In this document: piece by piece, positions 1-19,730 of the stretch
Numbering within the stretch: the stretch's first letter is position 1
How the letters are laid out: every line of letters begins with the position of its first letter
Virus record (IMG/VR): IMGVR_UViG_3300020045_005287
Span: 1 to 24,414 of that record
Reading direction: 5' to 3' (one strand)
DNA: 24,414 bases
DNA from: a virus
Lineage: Duplodnaviria > Caudoviricetes
Program-made: the position numbers and the translations under genes
The notes under the pieces: model-generated
Seen by the model: the letters and a program-made list of their open reading frames with translations, nothing else
The model's database searches: none
What the model was told of the DNA's origin: nothing

Positions 1-119
1 AACGGCCCCGAAATTGCCGCAGTGCGCCACGTTTTATTGAGGCACGAAATAAAGTAAGTGGTGTCCTGCGGTCGAAGGAAACCGGCGCATTGAGGCAATT
101 TGTGTGTTAGCCGCCGTCC
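1..119. repeat. attC-like palindromic recombination site 1 (left edge cut by the window)
   Basis: AAC at 1-3. Arm AAATTGCCGCAGTGCGCC (11-28) pairs with GGCGCATTGAGGCAATTT (84-101), 16/18 Watson-Crick. GTTAGCC core box at 106-112. Confidence 0.7.
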
Positions 120-267
120 GGGCTATGAGTGTTAGCTTTCCTGAGTTTTCGGGGCCGTTAGACCGCCATCAGCATTTGTAAAAAGGAGTGACGTAGGAAC
201 GGTTTTACATTGCGTCTTTCAGTTTTCTTGTTACTAACTAAAGAGTATTATTTTTATTTTTTATTTT

Positions 268-607: not shown

Positions 608-691
608 TTGAATTTCTGTCTTCTGTATTCGTGGCAAGGGAAAGAAAAAATAAAAAAAATTCCTTTTTCCTATGTAACAAAGGAACTGAAA

Positions 692-837
692 GGATGGCGG
701 TCTAACGCTGTGGCTTTGCGAAGGGCTGATGGCTTTGCACTTCCGACCCAAACCATTAATGCTGCTTGGATTTGTAATTGGCTCAAAATTTATTCAGCAG
801 CCAGCCTTTTGCAAAACCGCTTGTTATGTGTAGTTGT
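692..837. repeat. attC-like palindromic recombination site 2
   Basis: GTCTAAC box (700-706). Arm GTGGCTTTGCGAAGGGCTG (710-728) pairs with CAGCCTTTTGCAAAACCGC (802-820), 15/19 plus three G-T pairs on the + strand. GTTATGT box at 823-829. Confidence 0.75.
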
Positions 838-896
838 GGGTGCTAATTGATGTCGCTGCTATGAAAAACTAAAGTTCGGCTGTATTATTTTTTTGA

Positions 897-915
897 AGCT
901 GCGGAGCATGTATTT
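897..915 (+). repeat. Conserved 19-bp cassette inner motif AGCTGCGGAGCATGTATTT, copy 2
   Basis: Exact match to 268-286. Confidence 0.9.
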
Positions 916-992
916 AAAAGCGGAAACCGCTATGAAATAGCGGCTTCTTATACTACTTAAACACTTAATGGTTTAAAAGCTAAAACAAAGAT

Positions 993-1217
993 ATGGTAAA
1001 TTACGAAGCATTATTAAGAGAAAAATACCTATTAGGAACTCCAAAAGAGCAATATGAATGGGTAGTTAATTTAGTTGAGTTGAACTCAAAGCATGAAAGA
1101 GTTGCAACGTATCTGTTACAAACAGTTCTGGCTTTAAGAGATACACCTACTATTTCAGATACCATAAATGATATGTTGGATATTTCAATAGATGTAAGTT
1201 TAAAATCGCTAAAATAG
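993..1217 (+). CDS. Hypothetical protein (cassette cargo)
   Basis: 74-aa ORF, first of four tightly packed co-oriented ORFs. Confidence 0.75.
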   Translation: MVNYEALLREKYLLGTPKEQYEWVVNLVELNSKHERVATYLLQTVLALRDTPTISDTINDMLDISIDVSLKSLK

Positions 1218-1222
1218 AAAAT

Positions 1223-1474
1223 ATGGATTATCCACAATTAGAAAGAGTAGGAACGTTTTGCATGAAATGCAATCAGGTTGTTTGTATTTGTAAAAATTTG
1301 AAAGATTTTAATAAAAAAGTAAAGACTGGCGAATATGTTATTGCACCTGAATATCATAGTTTATTTGGGACTGTCAAACACTACCTTTCCGAAACTAATG
1401 TAATGATAAGTTGTAATGATTATAACTGCCTATCTGATGCTCAAAAAGAAAAATGTAAACCTGTTTATAAATGA
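1223..1474 (+). CDS. Hypothetical Cys-rich protein (cassette cargo)
   Basis: 83 aa with CMKCNQVVCIC near the N-terminus; ATGA overlap with the next ORF. Confidence 0.7.
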   Translation: MDYPQLERVGTFCMKCNQVVCICKNLKDFNKKVKTGEYVIAPEYHSLFGTVKHYLSETNVMISCNDYNCLSDAQKEKCKPVYK

Positions 1475-1683
1475 ATCCGCATACTAAGTATAGTCCAAAA
1501 GTAAGGGCAAGAAAGATGTATAATGACCATGCTTACTATATGGTTAAATACGGTATAAAAAACGCAACCGAAAAAGCTAAAAAATCAGCTATTAGAGAAG
1601 TTGATGAAATACTTAGCCAAGATTGGTTAAAAGGAAATGAACAATATTGGAATGAGGTAAAAGCTGAAATTGAAAAACTATGA
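1471..1683 (+). CDS. Hypothetical phage protein (cassette cargo)
   Basis: 70 aa; ends YWNEVKAEIEKL, a pattern I recall from small Bacteroidota phage proteins; ATGA overlaps on both sides. Confidence 0.78.
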   Translation: MNPHTKYSPKVRARKMYNDHAYYMVKYGIKNATEKAKKSAIREVDEILSQDWLKGNEQYWNEVKAEIEKL

Positions 1684-1901
1684 CAGATATAGAAGCGTTT
1701 GAAGTATTTGATAAATATTCAGATGAGCCAACAAGGGCAAAATTGAAAATCATGCTGCATACTGTTGGCATTGATAAAACCATAAAAACAATGGTTGAGG
1801 CTTATTCAGGGGAAGGCCAAAAACTACCGTCCGAATTTATAGGCGTTATGAAGCAGGCTTTTACATACATGAGTAAACAAATGGCAGAACCTTTAAATTA
1901 A
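1680..1901 (+). CDS. Hypothetical protein (cassette cargo)
   Basis: 73 aa; ATGA-coupled to the preceding ORF. Confidence 0.75.
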   Translation: MTDIEAFEVFDKYSDEPTRAKLKIMLHTVGIDKTIKTMVEAYSGEGQKLPSEFIGVMKQAFTYMSKQMAEPLN

Positions 1902-2055
1902 ATACAAATGTTGAATTGGAAACTAATGTGTGGCGTGGGCAAAAAAAAAATAATACAGTTATCCGTCTGCCCCATAAATGGTATGCTGGTAACAATTACA
2001 CATAACTCGTAAATATGCGACACTAAGGCTACACGGTGTAACTAAATTGATAACT

Positions 2056-7429: not shown

Positions 7430-8542
7430 ATGAAAATCACATTAAGCAGCGGGGAATTATCGAAGAAACTCAATTTTTTGGGAGGTGTAATCGCACCCAA
7501 CAACACAATGCCAATTCTGGACAATTTCCTTTTTGATATTGAAAACAAACAATTGAAAATAACATCATCAGATCTCGAAACCACGATGTCCACCACGATG
7601 GACGTGGATTTTGAGGGCAAAGCAACCGTGGCGATACCGGCCAGACTTTTGATAGAGATTTTGAAAACATTCTCTGAACAACCTTTGGTTTTCACGATTC
7701 AGGAAAACAACACCATCGAAATCAGTTCGAATACAGGACAATATGAAATTGCTTATTTCCTTGGTGAAGAATATCCAAAATCCATCGTGTTGAAAAATCC
7801 ATCATCCACGCTTATACCGTCCAAAATATTAGCCAATGCGATTGGAAAAACGCTTTTTGCCACAAACAACGACGATTTGAGACCGGCAATGAACGGTGTT
7901 TATTTTCAGCTATCGACTGAAAGCATCATTTTTACGGCCACCGATGCACACAAGTTGGTTAAATATTCCAGAACGGACGTGAAAGCCACTGAAGAATCCA
8001 GCTTCATTATGCCAAAGAAACCTTTGGGTGTTTTGAAAGGCATATTAAGCACCTTGGATGAAGAAGTGAAAATTGAATTCAATGAGTCGAATGCGGTGTT
8101 TTCTTTTGGAAATTACATCATTTCGTGCCGCTTGATTGATGCCAAATATCCCAATTATGAGGCGGTTATCCCAAAAGACAATCCAAGCAAATTGATCATC
8201 GACAGAACTTCTTTTTTACAATCTGTAAAGCGTGTGGCAACTTTTTCGAACAAAACCACGCACCAAATCCTTTTGAAAGTGGCGGGAACGGAACTGAACA
8301 TTTTTGCTGAAGATGTGGACTATTCCAACAAAGCCGATGAACGCCTGACCTGTAATTTTCAGGGTGAAGATATCAAGATAGGTTTCAATTCCCGTTTCCT
8401 GTCTGAAATGCTGGGCGTTTTTCAGTGCAACACGATTGAAATGGAATTGTCATCGCCAATGCGTGCCGGAATCCTGAAAGCCGTGGACGGTCTGGAAGAA
8501 GGCGAAGAAATCCTGATGCTGGTAATGCCGGTAAAAATATAA
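7430..8542 (+). CDS. dnaN: DNA polymerase III beta subunit (sliding clamp), phage-borne copy
   Basis: 370 aa with PILDNFLF, SDLETTM, DDLRPAMNGV, ATDAHKL, RLIDAKYPNYEAVIP, IGFNSRFL and terminal LVMPV. Confidence 0.97.
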   Translation: MKITLSSGELSKKLNFLGGVIAPNNTMPILDNFLFDIENKQLKITSSDLETTMSTTMDVDFEGKATVAIPARLLIEILKTFSEQPLVFTIQENNTIEISSNTGQYEIAYFLGEEYPKSIVLKNPSSTLIPSKILANAIGKTLFATNNDDLRPAMNGVYFQLSTESIIFTATDAHKLVKYSRTDVKATEESSFIMPKKPLGVLKGILSTLDEEVKIEFNESNAVFSFGNYIISCRLIDAKYPNYEAVIPKDNPSKLIIDRTSFLQSVKRVATFSNKTTHQILLKVAGTELNIFAEDVDYSNKADERLTCNFQGEDIKIGFNSRFLSEMLGVFQCNTIEMELSSPMRAGILKAVDGLEEGEEILMLVMPVKI

Positions 8543-11391: not shown

Positions 11392-11464
11392 CGTGAGGTA
11401 GAGCAGTTGGCAGCTCGATAGGCTCATAACCTATAGGTCGCAGGTTCGAATCCTGCCCTCGCAA
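11392..11464 (+). tRNA. tRNA-Met(CAT), initiator (fMet)-type
   Basis: Cloverleaf: acceptor CGTGAGG/CCTCGCA with C1:A72 mismatch, D-stem GAGC/GCTC, anticodon stem ATAGG/CCTAT with loop CTCATAA, T-arm GCAGG-TTCGAAT-CCTGC. CCA is not encoded. Confidence 0.93.
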
Positions 11465-18185: not shown

Positions 18186-19730
18186 ATGGAAAAGTCATTA
18201 TTCCCTGCGTGGGTGGATAAATATTTCAAAATGTTTACCCAAAAGATTGTAGAAAAACTAAACGGATCCACAAATCCGCTTACGTATCTTCACAGAACGA
18301 TGTTGAAAAAAGAATATTCTCCCACACTTCGTTGGGGTTCTTTGTCAACTTCAAATACTGTTGTTTCTGCTGATGTAGTTGCAATGGATTCAAGTTTACC
18401 ATTGAAAAAAAGAGATTCCATCAAGAAAGCCGATGGTGAAATTCCTAAAATAGGTATGAAACTAGCCTTGAACGAAACTACTATGAATGAGTTAAACATT
18501 CTATTAGCTGTTGGAGGTCAAGATTCAGAAGTTTTAAGAAAACTTTTCGCCGATACTAACAAGGTAGTTTCAGGGGTTTGGGAAAGATTGGAATTTATGT
18601 TTCATCAAGCATTGTCGACAGGTTATATATTGGTTGCCGATGATGACAATCCAGGTCTTGGAGTCCGTGTAAATTTCAATCATTCAGATGATAATAAATT
18701 TGGAGTTGAGATTAAATGGTCTGAATCGGGAGCTAAATGTATCGATGATATCGACAGGGTTATTGAAGCTGCAAGACCATCTGGAAATACAATCAAGTAC
18801 ATCTTGATGGATAAAGCCACTTGGAACAAATTCAAACAAAATCAGCAAGTGAGAGAAGGTTACGCTTTTTATCGTGATTTCGTTGGCTCAAACATTCCAC
18901 CAGTACAATCAGTTGAAAAAGCAAATGAATTTTTGCAAGCTTCTTATGGAGTTACAATTACTATTGTTGATCGTCACGTTTTAGTTGAGAAAAACGGTAC
19001 TCAAAAATCAATCAAACCTTGGGCAGATAATGCCGTGGTATTCTTGACTGACTTAAACGTGGGTACATTGACTTATGGTAGATTAGCTGAAGAAACTTTT
19101 CCAAGCAAAAATGTTGATTACCAAAAACTAGATGATTTCATCTTGGTATCTAAATACCATTTGAATGATCCAATTAAAGAGTTGACATCTTCTCAAGCTA
19201 TTGTATTACCAGTTCTAAACAACATCGACAGTATATACATAATGGATTGTGAGGAATCGCAAACAGAATCAGGTCAAACTGAAGATGATGCAACTATCAC
19301 CATATATGCTGATTCAACTGTTACAATCGCAAATCTTGTAAATGCATTGAATGAAGTTGGAGTTACTGCAAGTTCCGAAATGACAGATGTTCAGTTAATC
19401 AAGTTGGTTAACAAATTAAGCAAAGCCAAAGAAGCTACCTTGAAAGAAATTCTTGAAATTCCTGTTGTTGATGCTGGTGCAAACACAACTTCAAGTGCTG
19501 CAACTAAAGCGTTGTTAGGAACTGCAACAGCTGCCGGAGATAAAGAAATTGAATCAGTTCTTTGGACTCAAGTTTCTGGACCAAACACGGCTGCATTTAG
19601 TGCCGCAACAGCATTGAGCACAAATGCTACAGGTTTAGTTACCGGTGTTTACGTGTTCAAATTGACTGCAACGGATTCTGAAGGTACAGTGGCATCTGAC
19701 ACAATCACAATCACAGCAACTGTAGCATAA
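18186..19730 (+). CDS. Major capsid protein (lambda gpE-like) with C-terminal helical linker and PKD/Ig-like domain
   Basis: ADVVAMDSSLPLKKR...GEIPKIGMK, ERLEFMFHQALSTG and PVL..IDSIY. The C-terminus PVVDAG...WTQVSGP...GVYVFKLTATDSEG is PKD-like. Confidence 0.88.
   Translation: MEKSLFPAWVDKYFKMFTQKIVEKLNGSTNPLTYLHRTMLKKEYSPTLRWGSLSTSNTVVSADVVAMDSSLPLKKRDSIKKADGEIPKIGMKLALNETTMNELNILLAVGGQDSEVLRKLFADTNKVVSGVWERLEFMFHQALSTGYILVADDDNPGLGVRVNFNHSDDNKFGVEIKWSESGAKCIDDIDRVIEAARPSGNTIKYILMDKATWNKFKQNQQVREGYAFYRDFVGSNIPPVQSVEKANEFLQASYGVTITIVDRHVLVEKNGTQKSIKPWADNAVVFLTDLNVGTLTYGRLAEETFPSKNVDYQKLDDFILVSKYHLNDPIKELTSSQAIVLPVLNNIDSIYIMDCEESQTESGQTEDDATITIYADSTVTIANLVNALNEVGVTASSEMTDVQLIKLVNKLSKAKEATLKEILEIPVVDAGANTTSSAATKALLGTATAAGDKEIESVLWTQVSGPNTAAFSAATALSTNATGLVTGVYVFKLTATDSEGTVASDTITITATVA

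Follow-up and report, generated by a model that had tools for sequence, protein, structure and literature searches.

An attC-type cassette variant with a conserved second arm complementary to its own circle junction in phage and bacterial arrays

Integron-type recombination sites are described as one hairpin whose folding probability sets mobility. According to the available text of PMC5027507, the integrase cleaves the folded strand in AAC, the cleaved strand is richer in G:T pairs, and the unpaired spacer is a feature that matters for integron attC sites. Integrons have rarely been reported in Bacteroidetes, as stated in the available parts of PMC9024848 and PMC8618304. The locus considered here resembles integron cassettes and phage CALINs in its imperfect hairpin with AAC/GTT cores, its unpaired spacer and its arrays exchanged at the core (PMC9892861; PMC5027507), as well as in the G.T pairs on the strand that probably recombines and in the tyrosine recombinase that stands at the array end in some records. 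It differs from them in a second internal arm, complementary to the circle junction of the unit itself. With this conserved arm, the unit is a new variant of the attC-type cassette.

Layout of the array and unit boundaries

The window, i.e., the whole stretch of DNA that was analyzed, is an entire viral contig of 24,414 bases with an estimated completeness of 47%. It contains phage genes, namely those of terminase, portal, capsid, tape-measure, methylase and beta-clamp; no tyrosine recombinase was found in this 47%-complete record. The beta-clamp gene is full (7430-8542), a tRNA is encoded at 11392-11464, and the major capsid protein (18186-19730) has a C-terminal PKD-like domain. Frames related to the cassettes of the window were found in records of Chitinophagaceae, Lacibacter and Ferruginibacter, from which we infer a host among the Bacteroidota. 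The left end of the contig (1-2006) is an integron-like array of two attC-type units (Table 1), each consisting of an AAC...GTT hairpin followed by genes within a closing stem that ends in AAC. The start of the contig coincides with a core; such a start would be expected were several upstream neighbours to converge on this point in the population.

Table 1. Features of the cassette array and of insertion-bearing family-G copies
Feature	Position	Strand	Remarks
5' core (AAC) of unit 1	1..3	+	contig begins here; homologs switch flank at the core
attC-like hairpin	1..108	+	arm 11-28 pairs with 85-101
Hairpin segment	4..10	+	pairs in the second-arm fold but not in the ordinary one
Ordinary partner arm, GTT + 11 nt	106..119	+	pairs with the 3' end of the unit; family G.T wobble at position 11; one bulge here
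Spacer	120..146	+	variable sequence; GTT-to-GTT distance 50-51 nt in 4/4 family members
Second arm	147..170	+	147-156 complementary to 4-13, 157-159 to either core, 160-170 to 693-703
Side hairpin behind the second arm (predicted)	172..213	+	purine-rich loop AGGAACG at 196-202, like the loop of the second family
Long closing stem around the gene, left arm	216..267	+	71% complementary to the right arm; differs yet is complementary in three homologs
Cargo ORF, 97 aa	314..607	+	no family match (Pfam); other genes in homologous frames
Long closing stem, right arm	641..692	+	partner of 216..267
3' end of unit 1 with 3' core	693..706	+	AAC at 704-706
Unit 2, ordinary	704..2006	+	hairpin 704-825; closing stem 823-837 with 1992-2006; without second arm; followed by non-hairpin phage DNA
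IS-bearing family-G copies	G212:C1:2711105, 2717728, 2721005, 2985095		5-base duplication; different upstream cassettes

In the ordinary fold of the hairpin, both the core boxes and the inner boxes are paired and the spacer is left unpaired, as in attC sites. The last unit of the array ends at AAC and is followed by non-hairpin DNA in the window, in the record of the related phage L001 and in five other phage arrays, and the same downstream phage DNA stands behind different last units in the window and in L001; the units therefore run from core to core. They are exchanged precisely at the core, since the flanks switch there both in the homologs and in seven copies of a unit in the bacterial genome G212. 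The crossover at AAC proposed in the preliminary description thus gains support from the unit boundaries, with the reservation that the complementary 24-mer, taken there as independent support, does not alone prove a circle. The cassette genes of chromosomal arrays are on the strand opposite to this one, and the AAC core therefore probably corresponds to the ordinary integron crossover, read here from the complementary strand. Position 11 of the closing stems is a G.T pair on this strand in all 25 stems examined. Since the hairpin that precedes the frame of unit 2 varies from phage to phage, exchange also takes place on the GTT side.

This frame (823-915 and 1905-2006; L151-L154, L158, L159) is reused with different genes and hairpins, and in frames of its type the cargo is swapped inside, near motifs at 270-286 and 632-636. 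In four further loci (L148, L127, L140 and L146), leaders with a common GCTGCGGAGC motif were found, the starts of which presumably resemble Xer dif sites.

The second arm and its covariation in two cassette families

When reverse-complemented, 147-170 gives 693-706 continued, via the common AAC, by 1-13, with 24 of 24 bases matching. Both strands of the window were scanned for a GTT flanked by segments, each 6 bases or longer, that are perfectly complementary to an AAC arm lying upstream and to an AAC end lying downstream; this site was the only one. In 300 of 300 dinucleotide shuffles of 1-2100, the weaker side had at most 5 paired bases, compared with 10 in the actual sequence. Thus, the perfect complementarity that had been described for unit 1 was confirmed, as was the lack of a perfect copy in unit 2 (704-2006), where the best alternative match was 14/23.

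The earlier concern that the arm could be a fold-back artefact near the contig end was excluded, since the same arm lies internally in three homologous units of other records. The bases upstream of these three units are unrelated to the end of the unit, and the internal arm is nevertheless present; a simple local inverted repeat with the upstream cassette was rejected for the same difference of the upstream bases. In the reads, no contig extended across position 1, an outcome that argues neither way. Nor is 147-170 merely the ordinary right end of an extended hairpin, for a separate ordinary arm is present at 106-119, which has the wobble at position 11 and covaries. A role of 106-119 as a target guide was dismissed as well, its match to the present upstream neighbours being at most 3-5 bases in three of three cases.

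The 24-mer by itself does not prove a circular intermediate. The end sequence of unit 1 also forms the array entry in the L001 record and in L170, so the junction could once have existed in linear form. At these entries (L001, minus strand, 4905-4900; L170, 1495-1514), the sequence is almost that of the 3' end of unit 1; such a unit may have left it as a relic, or it may be a site at which docking is preferred.

Three further full units with the same 5' block (family F) were found in the phage records L001, L311 and L323, each differing in its gene, closing stem and neighbours. In L001, both the 3' end and the arm are short of one base, which is a compensated indel; the arm of L311 matches 23/24 bases, with two compensated substitutions and one mismatch. 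The 5' arm of L323 differs at three positions and in the core, all compensated, and the right half of its second arm has decayed (5/11 ungapped), its core matching the 5' TAC and not its own 3' AAC. All 13 pairs of the left helix are kept in the four members of the family (52/52 cells), and four pairs are changed on both sides; covariation as high was reached in 2 of 500 shuffles, a figure that is inflated by relatedness, with all four changes coming from one lineage. Position 12 is compensated in both the ordinary hairpin and the second arm, which indicates that both folds are kept. In two partial homologs from run X2, the arm is kept and the spacer is different. In three of the four family-F units, and likewise in the G212 unit, the ordinary arm is bulged, mismatched or a poorer fit to the end than the second arm. 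A strong hairpin stands between the cargo stop codon and the closing arm in the L311, L323 and L001 units, terminator-like in two of them; the unit of the window is without it.

Family F was found once per record, and no new member was revealed by the viral pattern searches (one of them covering 120 of ~460 stretches), by the genome pattern searches, among annotated phages or in the metagenome pattern search, where 13 of 13 matches were due to chance. Genome searches for family F gave 0 hits among 401 genomes, one short match among 401, and weak matches in 6 of 151 that proved not to be homologous on reading; a pattern match was found in 36 of 401 genomes, with no returned locus homologous by profile.

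A total of 38 distinct units from loci with a GC content of at most 0.47 were scanned for complements of their own junctions; the L323 unit was missed by this filter. Four of the 38 matched at 20-21 of 21 positions and the other 34 at 13 or fewer. One of the four is a second, different unit in the L311 record, with the arm 68 nt behind the ordinary arm. Homologs of its body were found in 2 of 301 family genomes (five gave a match; three short matches, of which only L438 was read, were left uncounted). This family G therefore comprises one phage and two bacterial genomes, and its bodies are gene-less. In the L311 record (minus strand, 3650-3380), a 63-codon ORF lies inside the hairpin loop of the family-G unit; the chromosomal versions are without it. 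The three versions of the family have three different 5' arms, and each matches its own second arm at 8/8 positions and the arms of the others at 4-6/8.

Taken over both families, the second arm tracks both ends of the unit in seven distinct sequences, with a perfect or near-perfect match to its own ends in six of the seven. All left halves are perfect (8-10 of 8-10), whereas cross-family matches of the left half reach 4-5/8 and those with the L323 arm 5-6/8. Behind the ordinary partner arm, which has likewise been kept, the second arm follows at a distance of 50-85 nt. Its pairs are Watson-Crick both at position 11, where the closing stems have G.T, and at the base preceding the core. In both families the second arm is followed by a covarying hairpin with a purine-rich loop, and the same scaffold bears quite different arm sequences. 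Among ordinary hairpins, no general inner second arm was found, with weak scores only. The arm changes in step with both ends of homologous cassettes, and the earlier proposal of a cis alternative pairing arm recognising the recombined junction is supported on both halves. A one-off template-switch footprint, suggested at the same time, is insufficient as the whole story because the arm keeps matching the ends at a conserved place in two families. Comparison of these sequences indicates that the second arm is conserved and selected; its mechanism is putative.

The G212 genome contains seven near-full family-G copies with 97-100% identity and different flanks, as well as three partial ones. In three regions of this genome, 14 units were detected (detection being incomplete): seven are the family-G unit and seven are single-copy ordinary units. 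These near-identical copies show that the second arm does not stop movement; spread to several copies was observed in a single genome and for a single family only. One copy abuts the tyrosine recombinase gene of the array (PF00589 and PF13495), which is related to the gene beside the phage array of L154. Four of the seven copies carry, at the same spot in the 5' end, an element with a 544-aa DDE transposase (DUF772 and DDE_Tnp_1_6), which we take to be IS1182-like. It is either a targeted IS or a composite that moves, and some of the spread may therefore be IS-linked.

Predicted folding and possible functions

Folding was predicted at equilibrium, without protein or kinetics. In the circles of all seven sequences, the core pairs with the second arm at a predicted probability of about 0.99-1.0. 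In the linear unit, the second arm is predicted to hold 4-13 and 693-703 side by side, and its GTT is contested by both cores, the two differing by no more than about 2-3 kcal/mol in six of the seven sequences and by 8.9 in L323. The ordinary recombinogenic fold typical of attC sites is not favoured in the intact sequence: its predicted probability is 1e-6 to 1e-14 in family F and 8e-6 to 4e-15 in family G, compared with 0.48-0.96 when the family-F arm is replaced and with more than 0.1 in 23 of 24 ordinary units. A strand-selecting device was considered and rejected, as the second arm is predicted to win about equally on both strands, and a likeness to group II intron domain V was dropped, having no support in Rfam.

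Our leading reading, which we hold tentatively and at somewhat less than even odds, is that the second arm is a cis splint on the recombining single strand and aids self-circularisation of the cassette. An integron-like tyrosine recombinase supplied in trans would cut at both cores, and the splint would align the enzyme-carrying end with the freed 5' end, so that a circle could form without the hairpin of a neighbour. One strand would be excised while the other would keep the donor copy, and copies would accumulate. The ordinary arm is also conserved and covarying, which argues that the second arm is not simply the working site; the ordinary arm was probably kept for the other step, either integration or the 5' cut. 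What we infer in this reading is that cutting takes place, that such an enzyme acts and that the effect has this direction. Against a splint, full pairing of the spacer removes the unpaired attC feature and might block strand exchange on integration, and the right half of the L323 arm has decayed.

A lock or ratchet is a less probable explanation. The arm would unfold the recombinogenic hairpin and occupy the 3' end, so that a cassette would insert through a short-lived ordinary fold, rarely leave and accumulate. The predicted fall of the ordinary fold in the presence of the arm and the conservation of both folds are consistent with it, and it is suggested by the report that integron excision falls with low folding probability (PMC5371416, available text). 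However, so strong a lock should also stop the circles needed for spread, yet the near-identical G212 copies stand at different junctions. Moreover, in the copies that have multiplied the ordinary arm contains a mismatch, while the second arm is perfect, and therefore the splint is favoured over the lock.

A role as RNA appears unlikely: a structured transcript would guide the recombinase to junction DNA or form a processing or regulatory duplex around the cargo. The covarying hairpin with its conserved loop and the variety of arms on one scaffold fit such a role, as does the gene-less state of family G, gene-less cassettes often regulating transcription according to the abstract of 10.1101/2023.11.21.568050. 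Against it, the arm is a single contiguous complement of one strand and bridge RNAs are split guides to both strands (PMC11208160, in its available parts); the units contain no recombinase; and neighbouring genes lie on opposite strands in phages and chromosomes. At the gathering score, Rfam matches in the window were limited to the tRNA. The motif TAnnTTTG, the Bacteroidota promoter consensus, is absent in 7 of 7 units.

Still somewhat less likely, the arm and the purine-loop hairpin could be the scaffold of a reprogrammable guide for an integron-like tyrosine recombinase. The 21-24 nt arm would specify the donor junction, as RNA or single-stranded DNA and possibly in trans, and would turn ordinary cassettes into self-amplifying ones.

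A neutral relic is very unlikely; in this case, template switching across the junction would have produced the arm, and repeated conversion within the folded strand would have preserved the match. At both positions where the family has a wobble, the arm is Watson-Crick, as a copy of the junction strand would be, and a hybrid in G212 (C1:2741153-2741400) consists of a family-G 5' part that passes, where the second arm would stand, into the end of an ordinary arm and a different cassette. Since the ordinary arm end occupies this place, the hybrid fits an origin by perfecting of a duplicated right arm; the arm may have arisen in this way or by copying of the junction strand. However, it stays matched while the adjoining spacers diverge, it keeps a fixed distance in family F, it occurs in two families with a covarying hairpin beside it, and 34 of the 38 similarly folding units have no such copy.

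Tyrosine recombinases need spacer identity at their sites, and the arm, on double-stranded DNA, is an inverted junction copy with an identical spacer next to the core; an inversion site, i.e., a third, inverted double-stranded recombination site flipping the hairpin segment 1-159, is nevertheless highly improbable, as this segment shows a single orientation in every one of the 4 family-F units and of the 7 full G212 copies and an inversion has no need for covariation with the distant 3' end.

Comparison with known systems

No title or abstract describing a junction-complementary second arm was found in the literature (subscription papers and supplements being outside this scope), and Rfam gave nothing relevant. 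Besides the second arm, the arrays differ from integrons in their 14-bp closing stems with a fixed wobble, in genes that, in the phages, are inverted relative to the site, and in the recombinase beside the L154 array, which scored 105 bits, below the TIGR02249 integron-integrase cut-off of 265. In this class of cassettes, selection maintains two partner arms that exclude each other, and the one predicted to win complements the product junction perfectly. Whether excision is promoted or hindered by it, the second arm would be a built-in control of cassette movement and may explain the multiplication of gene-less selfish cassettes in arrays.

Family G resembles the gene-less integron cassettes of 10.1101/2023.11.21.568050 in being gene-less and interspersed among gene-bearing cassettes. 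The published ones show promoter activity, and the abstract mentions no junction-complementary arm; family F, in contrast, carries genes. The attP(+) site of the CTX phage, a precedent for folded inverted half-sites, is similar: two such half-sites, separated by about 100 nt, pair within a single strand, and a tyrosine recombinase acts in trans. However, CTX is a phage that integrates at chromosomal dif through host XerC/D with two arms, whereas gene-cassette arrays with three arms were found here (PMC4246890, available parts).

In the IS110 bridge RNA, the donor-binding loop is alike in that a non-coding left end pairs with both sides of the element's circle junction about a short core and shows covariation with that junction (PMC11208160, available parts), and in the present units the arm also covaries with the circle junction. 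The DEDD RuvC-like recombinase (PF01548, PF02371) that lies inside IS110/IS1111 elements was not found in them, the cargo ORF being without a Pfam match and family G being gene-less. If the arm were reprogrammable, a guide principle would be added to a tyrosine recombinase system. The split guides of the IS110 bridge RNA pair with opposite strands of the donor (PMC11208160, available parts), whereas the arm of the present units is one contiguous complement of one strand.
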